From IMG/VR virus record IMGVR_UViG_3300045988_036789, positions 1-48,415 of that record: 48,415 nt of DNA. One strand, given 5' to 3'. This DNA is from a virus. Position numbers and translations under genes: made by a program. The notes under the pieces are model-generated. The model did not search any database. It had not been told where the DNA came from and saw only the letters and a program-made list of their open reading frames with translations. This document shows, in pieces, positions 26,533 through 48,415 of the stretch (within the stretch, counting starts at the first letter, position 1; each line of letters begins with the position of its first letter).

Positions 26533-26551
26533 GTGTCCGAATTGGTCACAT
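26533..26551 (+). repeat. parS-like 19-bp site, copy 2 (parA stop / parB RBS junction)
   Basis: GTGTCCGAATTGGTCACAT. An imperfect palindrome, TGTGtCCgA-A-TtGGtCACA. Confidence 0.55.
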
Positions 26552-27307
26552 TCTCAACCATTCTTCCACTAACGCTTTATAGTCGGCACTTGCGCCGCAG
26601 CGTGGGGAATATAAAATGATTGGTAATCTTTCAAATGTGCTGGGCTTCATTTTTGGTGTCTTTCTGATATGTGTTTCAAACACCGGATATTCAAGCGTCT
26701 TCAAGAACTCTTCGCCCTGTGTGTCTGCTTCATTGGTTCTGTCGTACTGTGTGACAAAGCAGCCACAGAAGCGCAACTGTGGGTTTAAGTCCTCACGGGT
26801 GTTGTCAATCTGTTCTTTCAGTTCTGCCAGCCCATCTATTGCAAAATCATCAATGGTTATAGGCACCATGACGTCTTGTGAAGCTACCAGCGCATTTATG
26901 GTTGAAATGTTAATGTCTGGGGCGTTGTCAATAATGCAGTAGTCATATTCATTCTGTAAGCCGTCCAGAAACTTTTTGAAGCGTGTCTGTTGCGGTCTTG
27001 ACTGGTCCAGCATGACTTCAAGGTTGGCTGTAAGCAAATTCATGTTCGCTGTGATAATGTCCAGCCCGTCAAAGTCCGTGTGTTGGATAACCTCTGCCGG
27101 GTCAATGCCCCGCTGTGTCATTACCTCTGCCGTGCCCTTATGGTCATAGCTGTGGCGGTTCATAATCTTACTTGCGTTGCCCTGCTTGTCATTGTCAATC
27201 AGCAGGACTTTGAAGCCTTTTACTGCTGCCAGAATATGTGCCATGTTTACGCTGGAAATGGTCTTTGCCACTCCCCCTTTAAGATTGATAATTGATAATA
27301 CTTTCAT
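26546..27307 (-). CDS. parA: ParA partition ATPase
   Basis: Deviant Walker A NLKGGVAKT; 253 aa; immediately upstream of parB. Confidence 0.9.
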   Translation of the reverse strand: MKVLSIINLKGGVAKTISSVNMAHILAAVKGFKVLLIDNDKQGNASKIMNRHSYDHKGTAEVMTQRGIDPAEVIQHTDFDGLDIITANMNLLTANLEVMLDQSRPQQTRFKKFLDGLQNEYDYCIIDNAPDINISTINALVASQDVMVPITIDDFAIDGLAELKEQIDNTREDLNPQLRFCGCFVTQYDRTNEADTQGEEFLKTLEYPVFETHIRKTPKMKPSTFERLPIILYSPRCGASADYKALVEEWLRM

Positions 27308-27358
27308 GTGGTATTCCTCCTTGTATCTGGTATGAATTTATAGTTGCTTTCCCAGTAA

Positions 27359-27465
27359 TGCGGCAGGCTGGATTTGAACCAGCGACATCATAGACACGGA
27401 CTGACAACGGCTGCTGCCGTTTTATTTCACCGTGCCCGTCCCTCTACCAGCTGGGGTACTGCCGC
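27359..27465 (-). ncRNA. tRNA-like RNA gene, non-canonical (107 nt)
   Basis: Perfect 7-bp acceptor stem GCGGCAG/CTGCCGC plus discriminator A. D-loop AGCTGGTA. T-arm GCTGG-TTCAAAT-CCAGC. The anticodon position is replaced by a 44-nt extended arm with no 7-nt anticodon loop. Confidence 0.55.
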
Positions 27466-27739: not shown

Positions 27740-27768
27740 ATTATATACTTACGGAAGTATAAAGTCTA
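27740..27768 (-). promoter_or_regulatory. promoter module A (-35 TAGACT, 17 nt, -10 TATAAT) with embedded palindromic operator
   Basis: The spacer carries TATACTTCCGTAAGTATA (27744..27761). The module is near-identical to those at 41164..41192 and 42178..42206. Confidence 0.55.
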
Positions 27769-27835
27769 TTGACATTCTGCACAATCTTACGGAAGTATAT
27801 TTGTATATTTTGTATACTTCCGTAAGTATTTGTTA

Positions 27836-35528: not shown

Positions 35529-36551
35529 TTATGCGTGTGCTTCCGCACCCGCTTTCAGTAAATCAGTTACCAGTTGCCAGCTTTCCAAAAACAAAGCGGA
35601 ACGGAACGAAGCGAAGTCGTGGACGCAAGAACGGGGGGAGCTCAAGCCCAGCGCACCAGCACCACCGTCGGAAGTGTAGCTGAAACACGAACCCCGGATA
35701 GGCACGGCTTCTTCAAGTTCGCTGTCTGCCCATATTCCGGCTGTTTCGTTCTTCCAATCGTGCGGTACAATTCCCAGCTTGTACGCAATTTCCGGCACGT
35801 CTTCCAACTCTTCCAGCTGCAATTCTGCAATGTGGCAGCCGTCCCAGTCCTTTTCTATCTTTTCTGCGGTTGACATAACCACGCCGCCGTCACTGCTGCC
35901 GTACAGCTTCAATGGCTTTCCGTTTATCTCTGCAACGGTCCAGTCCGGGGCTTCGTCTTTGTAGCCCTCCACTGCTGCGTCATTGTCCTTTGTGTACTCC
36001 ACAACGCCTTTGTGCAGGCGTAAGCCCGTTACAAATTCCCAGAAGTTGCCGCAGATACCGAACACGCCGCCTGCGGTTCCGTCATGTGACCATGTAAGCG
36101 GGTCACACCCGGTCAGTGTTCTTCCGGCGCTGTCGTATACAACGCCCTTTTCCTGCGGGTTGTCTGCATTGCTTCCGTGGTTCGTGTTGCCGCCTATCGT
36201 GTGCCCCAGTTCTTCCGCTTCATGTAGCAGATAGACAAATTCCGTGTTTGTCATAAGGTGCCAGCCCTCACCCTTTCTGGCGCAGGCTGCCGCCGCTTCA
36301 TCAAGTGTGATTGTGTGGCGTGGCTGCTGGTACGGCAGGGACACTGCAACGTCACCGCCCATGCTTTTCATTGTTGTGTTGTGGTACTGTGAAATCAGAA
36401 TTGCCGGAACAATCTTGTTTCTGATTTTGAACATTTCCGGCACGTCCTCCGGGTTGTACGTCCCCGGCTCCATGTAAAACATGGTCATGTAGTTTGGCAG
36501 TCCCAGTCTGTCTTTGACAATGACCGCTTTTTTCTTCACAAATTCTTTCAT
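35529..36551 (-). CDS. DGR target protein 1 (remote; FGE-sulfatase/C-type-lectin-fold variable protein)
   Basis: 340 aa; ARKGEGWHLMTNTEF...ICGNFWEFVTGL...PIRGSCFSYTSDGGAGALGLSSPRSCVHDFASFRSA. The C-terminus carries VR1. Confidence 0.9.
   Translation of the reverse strand: MKEFVKKKAVIVKDRLGLPNYMTMFYMEPGTYNPEDVPEMFKIRNKIVPAILISQYHNTTMKSMGGDVAVSLPYQQPRHTITLDEAAAACARKGEGWHLMTNTEFVYLLHEAEELGHTIGGNTNHGSNADNPQEKGVVYDSAGRTLTGCDPLTWSHDGTAGGVFGICGNFWEFVTGLRLHKGVVEYTKDNDAAVEGYKDEAPDWTVAEINGKPLKLYGSSDGGVVMSTAEKIEKDWDGCHIAELQLEELEDVPEIAYKLGIVPHDWKNETAGIWADSELEEAVPIRGSCFSYTSDGGAGALGLSSPRSCVHDFASFRSALFLESWQLVTDLLKAGAEAHA
35594..35707 (-). repeat. DGR variable repeat VR1
   Basis: 114-nt alignment to the TR has 16 mismatches. 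15 are at TR adenines and 1 is non-adenine (35611). Confidence 0.9.
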
Positions 36552-36654
36552 TTGCGCTTTTCCTCCTTGTATCTGGTATGTTTTATCTTGAATAGCTTTT
36601 CGCTACTATTCACATTTTGACTATTGAAAAACCTTTGCTTTTTTCGCCCAGCGC

Positions 36655-37463: not shown

Positions 37464-37492
37464 ATCATAGCATTGTTTTGTTGGTCTGTCAA
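37464..37492 (-). promoter_or_regulatory. leftward early promoter (TTGACA, 17 nt, TATGAT)
   Basis: -35 is the reverse complement of 37487..37492; -10 is the reverse complement of 37464..37469. The palindrome GTTGGTCTGTCAAC (37480..37493) overlaps the -35. Confidence 0.55.
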
Positions 37493-37524
37493 CTCACTTT
37501 TCTATATTTATTCTTATTTTTTGG

Positions 37525-37553
37525 TTGACTAACACATTTTCTTGTTGTATAGT
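37525..37553 (+). promoter_or_regulatory. rightward promoter of the repressor gene (TTGACT, 17 nt, TATAGT)
   Basis: Back-to-back with the leftward promoter; 32 bp separate the two -35 boxes. Confidence 0.55.
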
Positions 37554-37589: not shown

Positions 37590-38078
37590 ATGGAAGTTTA
37601 CGAACGAGTGCGATTATTAAGAAAAGATACTTTGAAAATGAGTATGGAAGCATTTGGAAAACGTCTGGGTGTCAGTCGTGATGTTATTAACAATATTGAA
37701 CATAACCGACTTGCGAAGCCGGACCAGAAATTGTCATTATATAAATTGATATGTAGTGAATTTAATATCAGTGAAGAATGGCTGCTGAATGGCACTGGTG
37801 ATATGTACGCCAGCAATGAAGCTGAATACAGCGCACTTATTGACCGGGTAATGACCGGGCAGAATGAGTTTGCAAAGAACATTTTCAAGACGTTTGCGCT
37901 TTTTGATGAAGCAGACTGGGAAGCGCTGCGGCGTATGATTGATAAATACATAGACGTTGCAGACGCAGAAGACGTGCCGGAAGAAAAGCCATTGTATGAC
38001 GACGTACCGGACACACCGGAAGAATTAGAAAAGCAATGCCCGCCAGCTGATAGCGGCGGCAATAGTGACGTTGGGTAG
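37590..38078 (+). CDS. XRE-family HTH transcriptional regulator (CI-like repressor candidate)
   Basis: RVRLLRKDTLKMSMEAFGKRLGVSRDVINNIEHNR is an HTH_3 pattern. Transcribed divergently from the early operon and upstream of the integrase. Confidence 0.8.
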   Translation: MEVYERVRLLRKDTLKMSMEAFGKRLGVSRDVINNIEHNRLAKPDQKLSLYKLICSEFNISEEWLLNGTGDMYASNEAEYSALIDRVMTGQNEFAKNIFKTFALFDEADWEALRRMIDKYIDVADAEDVPEEKPLYDDVPDTPEELEKQCPPADSGGNSDVG

Positions 38079-38324
38079 TCCCCCTAAAGGGACGCCCAGC
38101 GGTCCCGCTTTACTTTTTAATGATTAGTTGTGTCGTTCCTGTGAAGTTAAGATTGATATACATTGTGTTGTTGCTGCTGTAATAAATAGCAAATATATTA
38201 TGGTTGCTATGATATATGTATTTCTTTTTCATTATCTCCCACGACCTTTCTTTTATCGGAAAAGCTGGGCGCTTTTCAATTATAAAGGTCTGGCAGGTTC
38301 ACAACTACTGTTAAAAATTGGCAA

Positions 38325-38402
38325 TAAAAACACCCGCAGTGCTGGGAACACTCCGGGTGCGGTGCAAAGATATATCATACCAGATACAACATACCGTCTG
38401 CA
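38325..38402 (-). ncRNA. candidate small RNA (~75 nt), antisense to the int upstream region
   Basis: Extended -10 TGATAATAT (reverse complement of 38409..38417). Terminator CCCGGAGTG-7 nt-CACTGCGGG plus TGTTTTTATTG (38357..38322). Contains UUGUAUCUGGUAUG. Confidence 0.3.
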
Positions 38403-38465
38403 CTTATTATATTATCACGGCATGACGGGAAATAAAAGGAAATTGACAAGAATTGTGGTGATATT

Positions 38466-39836
38466 ATGAGGAATAAGAAAATTGCCCCGGCGCTTGTCCG
38501 GGTTGCTCTATATATAAGGGTTTCCGGTGAAGAACAAAAGATAAAAGGCTTGTCACTGGAAGCCCAGCAAGAACGGCTGGAAGCATACGCAAGGGAACGT
38601 GGCTGGGTCATTGTTGGGATTTATATTGACGCCGCAAAGACCGCCAGAAAGAACATTCACAAAAGAACTGAATTTCAACGCATGATGGACAGCGTGAAGC
38701 GTGATGAAGTGGACATTTTGCTTTTTGCCCGCCTTGACCGCTGGTTTCGTTCCGTTGCTGATTATTACAAAGTTATGGAAATATTGCAGGCGCACAACTG
38801 CGACTGGAAGACCACTGATGAAGAGTACGACACGACAACCGCAAACGGGCGTCTGTATATCAATGTGAAGCTGTCCATTGCGCAGAATGAAGCCGACATA
38901 GACGGTGAAAGAATAGACGTGGTGTTTGACAGCAAGATTGCGCACGGCACCGTTGTTTCCGGTTCTGCTCCGTTCGGTTTCCGTGTGAATGAAAAAAAGC
39001 GGCTGGAAGTCGTACCGGAAGACGCAGCCATTGTGCAAGACGCTTTTAATTATTTTGAAAACACAGTTTCCCAGCGGGCTACTGTTCGTTATATCCGGGA
39101 AACATACGGCGTGAACTGGTGTGACGCCACATTTCGGCGTATGCTGAAAGAAAAGCTGTACACTGGCGTGTATGACCGGGGCGGCAGATATAATGACCAA
39201 TTCTGCCCGGCAATCATAAGCAGACAGCAGTTTGACCGTGTGCAAGCGCTTCTGACACGCAATGTGCGTTCCGCTCCATCTGGCAAGGTTTATATTTTCA
39301 CTTCCATTCTGACTTGTGCTGAATGTGGGCACAAACTTGTTGGCTACAAATCCAGTGATTATTTTTATTACCGCTGCAACCAGCATTTCCAGCGTGGGCG
39401 CTGCTCTCATAATCATTCAGCCCGTGAAGACGTTGTGGAACAATGGCTGTTTGAACACTTAGGGGAAGAACTGGAACGCTACCAGCTTGAATGGGACGTG
39501 GAAGCAGCCAAAAAGAAAGCGTCCGTTGCCCGGACTGACAAAGCCGCACTGAAACGGAAGCTGACTAAATTAAAAGAACTGTATGTGAATGACCTTATCG
39601 ACATTGAAGACTATAAAAAGGACTATCAAATATATGTTTCTGCACTGAACCAGATACCGGAACCAGCGCAGGAAGCACCGCCAGACTTTGCAGCTGTGCG
39701 CAGGCTTCTTGATAATAGCTTTAGAACCATTTATGATACTTTGACCCGTGAAGAAAAACGCACGCTTTGGCGTTCGGTCATTAAAGAAATAAGAATTGAC
39801 AATGACCAGAATATCACGGGTGTTGTTTTTGGGTAG
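38466..39836 (+). CDS. int: large serine recombinase (integrase)
   Basis: Resolvase-type N-terminus ALYIRVSGEEQ...LSLEAQ, recombinase domain, Zn-ribbon CAECGHKL...YYRCN, C-terminal coiled coil. Confidence 0.9.
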   Translation: MRNKKIAPALVRVALYIRVSGEEQKIKGLSLEAQQERLEAYARERGWVIVGIYIDAAKTARKNIHKRTEFQRMMDSVKRDEVDILLFARLDRWFRSVADYYKVMEILQAHNCDWKTTDEEYDTTTANGRLYINVKLSIAQNEADIDGERIDVVFDSKIAHGTVVSGSAPFGFRVNEKKRLEVVPEDAAIVQDAFNYFENTVSQRATVRYIRETYGVNWCDATFRRMLKEKLYTGVYDRGGRYNDQFCPAIISRQQFDRVQALLTRNVRSAPSGKVYIFTSILTCAECGHKLVGYKSSDYFYYRCNQHFQRGRCSHNHSAREDVVEQWLFEHLGEELERYQLEWDVEAAKKKASVARTDKAALKRKLTKLKELYVNDLIDIEDYKKDYQIYVSALNQIPEPAQEAPPDFAAVRRLLDNSFRTIYDTLTREEKRTLWRSVIKEIRIDNDQNITGVVFG

Positions 39837-39888
39837 TGTTGTACTAATTGAACACTACCCGTGGGCTGTGTTAAGTTAGTACAAAATA

Positions 39889-39935
39889 AAGAACCCCAGC
39901 AAGGTTGTTGCCTACCGGGGTTCTTCTTTTTATTT
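39889..39935. terminator. bidirectional intrinsic terminator between int and the convergent early genes
   Basis: AAGAACCCC-19 nt-GGGGTTCTT followed by CTTTTTATTTT, with a T-rich tract on the other strand as well. Confidence 0.6.
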
Positions 39936-41163: not shown

Positions 41164-41192
41164 ATTATATACTTACGGAAGTATAAAGTCAA
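41164..41192 (-). promoter_or_regulatory. promoter module C (TTGACT, 17 nt, TATAAT) with embedded palindromic operator
   Basis: The operator TATACTTACGGAAGTATA at 41168..41185 fills the spacer. Confidence 0.6.
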
Positions 41193-41823: not shown

Positions 41824-42081
41824 CTATTCCTCTTCTTTCTTCCATGTCAGTTCTTCCCCGGTGTCCCGCTGGTACTTCTCTTTCACCGCTTCCACAACAT
41901 AGTTATTCTGCGATGAATAGCCCTGTTCTTTCGCAATCTCTTTTATGCGGGCTTTCATTCCTTTTGGCACCGCAAGTTCCATGCGGTCATAATTATTGTC
42001 ACGGTATTTGTTCTTTGCTGCCGTGGCTGCTGGTCCTCTCGGTATGGTCTTCTTTTCTGTTGTATCTGGCATTTTCTGCAC
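41824..42081 (-). CDS. ribbon-helix-helix (Arc/CopG-like) DNA-binding protein candidate
   Basis: YDRMELAVPKGMKARIKEIAKEQGYSSQNNYVVEAVKEKY fits an RHH beta-alpha-alpha pattern. Abuts operator region B. Confidence 0.5.
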   Translation of the reverse strand: MQKMPDTTEKKTIPRGPAATAAKNKYRDNNYDRMELAVPKGMKARIKEIAKEQGYSSQNNYVVEAVKEKYQRDTGEELTWKKEEE

Positions 42082-42177
42082 CTCCTGTGGTTTTTAATCA
42101 GTATATCACACTTTGTTTTCTTACGGAAGTATACATTTTATACAATCTTACGGAAGTATATTTGTGTATTTTGCCGA

Positions 42178-42206
42178 TTGCTTTTATACTTCCGTAAGTA
42201 TATAAT
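42178..42206 (+). promoter_or_regulatory. promoter module B (TTGCTT, 17 nt, TATAAT) with embedded palindromic operator
   Basis: Operator TATACTTCCGTAAGTATA at 42185..42202. Two further half-sites upstream at 42120..42133 and 42147..42160. Confidence 0.6.
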
Positions 42207-48293: not shown

Positions 48294-48415
48294 TTATTCC
48301 ACAAAAGCGGAACGGAACGAAACGTTGTAGTCGACGAAAGAACGGGGGTTGCGCAAGTGCAGCGCACCAGCACCACCGCCGGAAGTGTCGTGGAAACACG
48401 AACCCCGGAAAGGCA
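48294..48415 (-). CDS. 3' end of DGR target protein 2 (continues from 1..986 across the circular junction)
   Basis: Reading frame is continuous: ...GAGALHLRNPRSFVDYNVSFRSAFVE, stop TAA at 48296..48294. 48361..48415 duplicates 1..55. Confidence 0.85.
   Translation of the reverse strand, partial: PFRGSCFHDTSGGGAGALHLRNPRSFVDYNVSFRSAFVE
48305..48415 (-). repeat. DGR variable repeat VR2
   Basis: 111-nt alignment to the TR has 13 mismatches, all at TR adenines. Confidence 0.9.

Follow-up and report, generated by a model that had tools for sequence, protein, structure and literature searches.

We think it rather probable that the minus strand just upstream of int, the large serine integrase gene of this phage, encodes a new family of phage small RNA (sRNA), which would have two or three leaders as trans targets and would also act in cis on int. 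The window, that is, the whole stretch of 48,415 nucleotides that was analysed, is a temperate tailed phage of about 48 kb. A first-pass annotation had proposed for it a candidate sRNA complementary to the leaders of a parA-like gene and of a DGR target gene; every part of that reading that could be tested computationally held, and the sRNA stays a prediction drawn from sequence. The same annotation described it as one riboregulator linking partition, integration and a diversified protein. The sRNA on which this statement depends is supported, but 'partition' proves to be loose wording, since the phage is an integrating prophage and its ParA/ParB-like pair may serve another function.

The genes that concern us here are int itself (38466..39836, plus strand; Pfam Resolvase, Recombinase and Zn_ribbon_recom), which is divergent from the sRNA gene, and the two predicted targets, both on the minus strand. 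These are a parA-like ATPase gene (26546..27307; Pfam AAA_31, CbiA and ParA), which belongs to a parA/parB-like pair, and a remote DGR variable-protein gene of 340 amino acids (35529..36551), whose variable repeat at 35594-35704 is of repeat family D1. The latter is a genuine DGR target: within the repeat core, the differences between template and variable repeat fall almost only at template adenines. The window also encodes the DGR, together with an HTH repressor-like gene (37590..38078) and divergent promoters near 37464-37553. Its two ends, positions 1-55 and 48361-48415, share an identical 55-nt sequence, which points to a circular assembly; this overlap lies inside a DGR variable repeat, with further near-copies at 35650 and 47658, so that the circular junction could also be a repeat artefact.

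Relatives are numerous. The sequence next to int is found in Lachnospiraceae prophages, including those of Hominiventricola, Otoolea, Acetatifactor and Mediterraneibacter, and the box described below, fused to GGAGG, occurs in more than 118 viral contigs and in many genomes. The DGR carriers that have the candidate form a widespread prophage group of human and mouse gut Lachnospiraceae. A megablast search of the region against the phage collection gave no matches, and neither did a distant search against the plasmid collection. One relative is cultured: Clostridium phage Saumur (ON453901.1), with a 47-kb genome, which is an inducible prophage of Enterocloster clostridioformis YL32 (PMC10197239).

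The connection between the int-proximal region and the two target genes is a 14-mer, CATACCAGATACAA, which occurs without mismatch exactly three times in the window, at 27321-27334 and 36567-36580 on the minus strand and at 38376-38389 on the plus strand. When up to two mismatches are allowed there are seven matches, compared with 0.38 expected from shuffled sequences, and seven was reached in none of 100 shuffles. Both minus-strand copies directly abut GGAGGAA, which is followed by the ATG of parA (27307) in one case and of the 340-aa gene (36551) in the other. The earlier claim that an exact complement of part of the RNA is fused to the Shine-Dalgarno (SD) sequences of these genes is thus borne out with no mismatch at either leader, as is that of a 15-nt pairing with the parA leader, where one extra U-A pair is formed. 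The third copy has the opposite orientation, and its complement is read on the minus strand, inside the cassette that would give rise to the sRNA.

Transcription of this cassette is predicted from a minus-strand extended -10 element (TGaTAATAT), TGATAATAT, found at 38417-38409 as first reported, with a predicted start at about 38403-38401. Of the 35 unique variants, 34 have a TGnTAnAAT motif at a distance of 10-11 nt from the GCAG in hairpin 1, while the surrounding bases vary, and the element is kept in diverged homologues (TGCTAAAAT in contig L229, TGGTATGAT in L483 and TGATACAAT in phage Saumur). TTGACA, or any other recognisable -35 hexamer, is absent from this promoter. This feature, together with a central G/G mismatch in the terminator stem, explains why a generic scanner for promoters and terminators missed both elements. 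The -35 region is instead occupied by a direct repeat, ATTTCC-N4-ATTTCC (38428..38443, minus strand), conserved in nearly all variants. We assign it to the sRNA promoter rather than to the ribosome-binding site of int because it is retained in Saumur and in contigs L255 and L272, which lack int; as read from its position, it may be an upstream promoter element or a site for a regulator.

The cassette folds in a strand-specific manner. The RNA running from 38405 to 38320 forms two hairpins (-38.8 kcal/mol, z = -6.3), whereas the complementary plus strand folds poorly (-19.6 kcal/mol, z = -1.8) and does not form hairpin 1. In the minimum-free-energy fold, hairpin 1 (38362..38403, minus strand) has 19 pairs, six of them G-U, and a CUG loop. 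Its 5' arm and loop, CGGUAUGUUGUAUCUGG, are invariant across 25 diverse aligned sequences. Substitutions are seen in the 3' arm, and these only ever keep G-U, A-U or G-C pairs on the minus strand, whereas on the plus strand they would give A-C mismatches; indels among the relatives also fall in the 3' arm. No double compensatory changes occur in hairpin 1 within the 25-sequence alignment.

The apex of hairpin 1 carries the putative seed, 5'-UUGUAUCUGGUAUG-3' (38376..38389, minus strand), whose reverse complement is found, without mismatch, in the boxes at 27321-27334 and 36567-36580. This block is invariant in the 25-sequence alignment and is the most conserved part of the RNA, and its core, UGUAUCUG, is kept in all homologues, L229 and Saumur included. 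One variant, L055, has a seed change that produces a mismatch with its own targets. Seven further invariant bases, CGGUAUG, are not accounted for by pairing with the targets. In the predicted fold only the CUG loop of the seed is open: its other bases pair within hairpin 1, with an unpaired probability close to zero, in an apical stem that is rich in G-U pairs; a 7-nt loop contains the seed centre in L229 and L157, and a 6-nt loop does so in Saumur.

Hairpin 1 is followed by an intrinsic terminator (38322..38360, minus strand), and here too the first-pass annotation was right: a stem-loop at 38360-38330, with an apical UUCCCAG at 38348-38342, precedes a U-tract that ends at 38322. The arms of the hairpin, CACCCGGAGUG and CACUGCGGGUG, enclose the central G/G mismatch. 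Among the 25 diverse sequences the stem shows compensatory double changes at seven pairs, with 97% of cells paired, and its covariation score of 0.253 compares with 0.141 for shuffled alignments, none of 500 of which reached it, and with at most 0.09 when the partners are slid. The interval between promoter and terminator, said to hold no open reading frame, does contain one, but of only five codons and with no SD sequence, so that its description as non-coding stands. When 38250-38480 was compared with Rfam, no family reached its gathering score and none was credible at E values of up to 10.

Could the 42-bp imperfect palindrome at 38362-38403 be a site in DNA rather than a hairpin in RNA? 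Large serine integrases use imperfect palindromes of about 40-50 bp beside int, and the copies of the 14-mer at 36567 and 38376 are mutually inverted, two points in favour of the palindrome as attP or as an inversion site, with the 14-mers as recombination sites. We find this scarcely credible, because the dyad is good only as a minus-strand RNA with G-U pairs, no relative has the segment 36581-38375 inverted or the 27-36 kb segment deleted, and the junctions of integrated prophages lie elsewhere. Homology with integrated Lachnospiraceae prophages ends at 39865-39867, whereas with unintegrated relatives it runs to 39930 and beyond. These junctions near 39866 are downstream of int, about 30 nt past its stop codon, and none falls inside 38362-38403, which was accordingly rejected as attP. 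The attP of the serine integrase is probably contained in 39840-39900, an approximate interval with the crossover near 39866.

The sRNA cassette, int and attP together make up a conserved block, about 38322-39867, that is sharply bounded in the Lachnospiraceae prophages. Its left edge, at 38322-38339, is the terminator, and its right edge lies some 30 nt past the int stop codon. To the left of the terminator the relatives have unrelated sequence, and the neighbours downstream of the cassette vary. This boundary and these differing neighbours imply that the RNA stands alone rather than forming the leader of a gene downstream. A role as leader or attenuator of a 40-aa open reading frame (38232-38110) was considered and rejected, the sequence past the terminator being completely different among the relatives. 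Replacement of int in Saumur, L255 and L272 has left the cassette in place. Copies with no serine integrase are found in the Lachnospiraceae genome contigs L255, L272, L271 and L319, of which the first two have an IS30-like transposase nearby and the last two have an apparently non-phage context; such copies may be prophage remnants, or may point to independent mobility of the cassette. Where int is present, any transcript that enters it from upstream would be fully complementary to the predicted sRNA, a geometry that allows cis-antisense action. No convincing plus-strand promoter was found between the cassette and int.

The leader of parA (27314..27334, minus strand) consists of the box CAUACCAGAUACAA fused to the SD sequence GGAGGAA. 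Loci retrieved through the ParA protein, and therefore blind to the motif, show that nearly all relatives with at least 79% ParA identity have the box directly before the SD sequence, even though the flanks differ. Upstream of the boxed leaders there is, depending on the relative, a tRNA gene, a tRNA-like element or a hairpin. In most parA leaders a second element, CUGGGAA, is found 8-27 nt upstream of the main box (27349..27355, minus strand, in the window), and in L213, L215 and L216 it is shown in a hairpin loop. It is complementary to the terminator loop UUCCCAG and may thus provide a possible second contact, bringing the complementary blocks to 14 nt plus 7 nt in most lineages; this contact is absent at the variable-protein leader, and in Saumur both partners are degenerate. 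The varying distance between CUGGGAA and the box is less easily explained by a promoter or by a protein site of rigid geometry than by two RNA contacts. It also contributed to our rejection of the sense-strand boxes as sigma-70, sigma-54 or ECF promoters, for which the hexamers and spacings, judged by eye, are unfit. In one lineage, represented by L217 and L219, parA has no box, and there no match to the sRNA model was found within about 3 kb beyond the repressor gene.

In the window, the position directly upstream of the parA leader is occupied by a tRNA-like element (27359-27465, minus strand), which scores 40 bits against the Rfam tRNA model. Its acceptor, D and T arms are intact, the anticodon region carries a 36-nt insertion, and ARAGORN makes no call. 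The relatives L162 and L201 have a regular tRNA-Arg(CCG) in its place. parA may therefore share a transcript with a tRNA and owe its 5' end to tRNA processing.

The second boxed leader (36560..36580, minus strand), again with the box fused to the SD sequence, is that of the DGR variable-protein gene. The second boxed gene in relatives is always a homologue from this variable-protein family, which has a C-type-lectin fold, and the N-termini of these homologues include MKEFVK, MSKMT, MKHEN, MEIKK and MSEFV. A few relatives have the box before a methylase gene or another gene as well. No structure is predicted around the box and SD sequence of the target leaders.

A weaker candidate target, AAUGCCAGAUACAACA (42058..42073, minus strand), spans the start codon of an 82-aa Arc/ribbon-helix-helix-like gene (42072..41824, minus strand). 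It could form 12 Watson-Crick pairs and one G-U pair with the sRNA, with two more pairs, and is conserved only in close relatives, being absent in Saumur; it may be a chance match. The same gene is surrounded by copies of a near-perfect palindrome, TATACTTCCGTAAGTATA, which occurs five times (27745-27761, 27813-27829, 41169-41185, 42113-42133 and 42185-42205), in two regulatory regions, the one there and another upstream of the operon of small open reading frames, tRNA and parA. These copies look like protein operators of a second control circuit.

Comparison of sequences within single genomes indicates that seed and targets have changed together in two diverged genomes, Saumur and L229. The Saumur seed, CUGUAUCUGGCAUG, has two U-to-C changes. 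In the Saumur parA leader, CAUGCCAGAUACA, one A-U pair has become G-C, and a U immediately 5' of the box also pairs, giving 14 contiguous nucleotides; no complement to hairpin 1 elsewhere in the 47-kb genome is as long. The other A-U pair has become G-C at the variable-protein and methylase leaders, which end in ...CAGAUACAG. In L229, whose integrase is 58% identical to that of the window, the seed is GGUUUGUAUCUG, and the variable-protein leader, CAGAUACAAACC-a-GGAGG, matches it at 12 of 12 positions, while the parA leader has an 11-nt match with one mismatch. The L483/L215 contig has kept a 12-nt match, along with a CUGGGA/UCCCAG loop pair. For the CAUG seed of L157, a matching parA box was found only in another contig, and a looser scan returned mostly unrelated coding sequence among the matches listed. 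L229 also contains, at about 2140-2225 on the plus strand and directly downstream of its first copy, a second, partial sRNA-like copy that has the same 3' arm and terminator and a different 5' arm, with a seed around AAUGUAUCUGAUUUC.

The same co-variation would be expected if a protein were reading the sense strand, since every copy of the motif points the same way with respect to the gene behind it. Such a protein, a phage-encoded translational repressor or a nut/boxB-like factor, would recognise CAUACCAGAUACAA, accompanied in some copies by a CUGGGAA hairpin or box, as an RNA or DNA element common to the int, parA and variable-protein leaders, and the minus-strand promoter and terminator would then be secondary. 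A CUGGGAA hairpin loop on a variable stem, reminiscent of boxB, does precede int on the plus strand and parA in L213, L215 and L216, and the invariant CAUACCG beside the int-proximal copy, which target pairing does not explain, would fit a protein site. We nevertheless regard this as unlikely. The hairpin that contains the int-proximal copy can be folded by the minus strand alone, and a conserved extended -10 lies on one side of it and a U-tract terminator on the other, both oriented along that strand; the spacing of the two boxes is not fixed; the variable-protein leader has no CUGGGAA; the cassette outlasts the loss of int downstream in three relatives; and no candidate protein was found.

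We return to an sRNA acting in trans as the preferred reading. The duplex prediction against both leaders, called for as a check on it, gave modest net gains once the opening of the hairpin is included. Translation-initiation regions, 193 in all, were ranked by cofold differences, the ViennaRNA duplexfold energies being implausible and set aside; the net cofold gain is -8.3 kcal/mol for the variable-protein gene (rank 5 of 193) and -4.6 kcal/mol for parA (rank 9 of 193).

These modest binding energies in trans, together with the sequestered seed, would also suit a function confined to the neighbourhood of int, to which, with attP, the cassette is tightly linked. The transcript would then be an antisense RNA, or the cassette an insulator ending leftward transcription, that controls int and protects the immunity region, and the C/A-rich box at the remote leaders would be an independent translation enhancer or standby site that shares its ancestry with the int leader. 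A C/A-rich stretch just upstream of an SD sequence is indeed a known translational enhancer (PMC3879156). Against this, no other part of the RNA is as conserved as the seed, seed changes in Saumur and L229 are mirrored at remote leaders of the same genomes, and the cassette has been retained where int was replaced; a role limited in this way therefore seems improbable to us.

The mechanism that we propose for trans action is as follows. A stand-alone RNA of about 80 nt would be transcribed leftward from the promoter at 38417-38409 and end at the terminator at 38360-38322. It would belong to the lysogeny module, moving with the serine integrase and attP as one cassette. What the sequences show is the anatomy of this cassette, its conservation and strand specificity, and the matched change of seed and targets; its transcription, its pairing in vivo, its repressive effect and its timing in the phage life cycle are inferred. 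The G/U-rich seed in the 5' hairpin, UUGUAUCUGG(UAUG), would pair in vivo with the unstructured C/A-rich box that abuts the SD sequence in the parA and DGR variable-protein leaders and, in some relatives, that of the methylase gene too. In most lineages the terminator loop UUCCCAG could make the second contact, with the CUGGGAA of the parA leader. The most likely effect would be translational repression, as the duplex would occupy the 30S landing zone just 5' of the SD sequence. An activating role, in which the sRNA opens a closed leader, is unlikely because the target leaders are predicted to be unstructured. The sRNA would in addition be a perfect antisense to transcripts reading into int.

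If this is correct, the RNA would connect the lysogeny module with two genes, one parA-like and one for a hypervariable DGR protein. A more tentative extension, which we consider possible though doubtful, is that sRNA, int and attP constitute a portable, RNA-based cassette for immunity and specificity. RNA expressed from the prophage would silence both the parA-like and the variable-protein gene, in the resident phage as well as in any incoming phage with the same box, and matched drift of seed and boxes, as in the canonical, Saumur and L229 types, would define heteroimmune groups. Were this so, it would be the first case of a DGR-diversified protein controlled by a riboregulator. The prediction is directly testable, since there is a cultured relative, Saumur, whose host E. 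clostridioformis YL32 belongs to the OMM12 model community. In the Saumur record (ON453901.1; L485) a CDS for a hypothetical protein, WAK79531.1, is annotated over the homologue of the sRNA cassette at 1998-2135 and is probably spurious. The candidate thus flags a probable mis-annotation in a GenBank phage record as well as a family that is absent from Rfam.

How does the predicted RNA compare with known regulators? To our knowledge, almost all known regulatory RNAs of temperate phages come from those that infect Proteobacteria, and a riboregulator of this kind has probably not yet been described for DGR phages of gut Lachnospiraceae and lies outside any curated family. The closest parallel is the c4 RNA of phages P1 and P7, a small structured antisense RNA of the immI immunity region in which short blocks complementary to sequence upstream of the ribosome-binding site block translation, and whose specificity varies from one related phage to another because RNA and target have changed in step. 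The predicted RNA is likewise placed in a lysogeny region, with a short complement just upstream of the ribosome-binding site and matched changes between relatives. Whereas c4 is cut from the same transcript that carries its target, however, the present RNA appears to be made from a promoter and to end at a terminator of its own, with targets in separate transcription units at distances of 1.8 and 11 kb. No homology to c4 in sequence or structure was found, Rfam giving no match, and the host is a Gram-positive member of the Lachnospiraceae.

In its mode of recognition the predicted RNA resembles sRNAs of the GcvB type, which pair with C/A-rich enhancer elements upstream of the SD sequence (PMC3879156). 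Both have a G/U-rich seed directed at an unstructured C/A-rich stretch immediately 5' of the SD sequence, rather than at the SD sequence or AUG itself, and both have several targets. GcvB, by contrast, is chromosomal, enterobacterial and Hfq-dependent, with a single-stranded seed, whereas here the RNA is phage-encoded, the seed is at the G-U-rich apex of a hairpin and the targets are phage genes. The sar RNA of P22, the OOP RNA of lambda and aQ are cis-antisense RNAs of temperate phages (reviewed in PMC12197685). Like them, the predicted sRNA would be a short terminated transcript that opposes an mRNA in a region controlling lysogeny; unlike them, it would not be confined to the overlapping gene, having exact complements at remote leaders too. 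That review contains no sRNA from Lachnospiraceae or other Clostridia gut phages and none tied to a DGR target; the first-pass annotation could point to no described precedent in DGR phages.

The nearest system in culture is phage Saumur. It differs from the window phage in having a transposase gene near the cassette, with no serine integrase annotated in the record, and in its two seed substitutions and different terminator loop. The two phages nevertheless share the same gene order, with a DGR, a parA/parB-like pair and a variable-protein gene, and Saumur carries a homologous cassette at about 2058-1950 on the minus strand, with matching boxes at three leaders.
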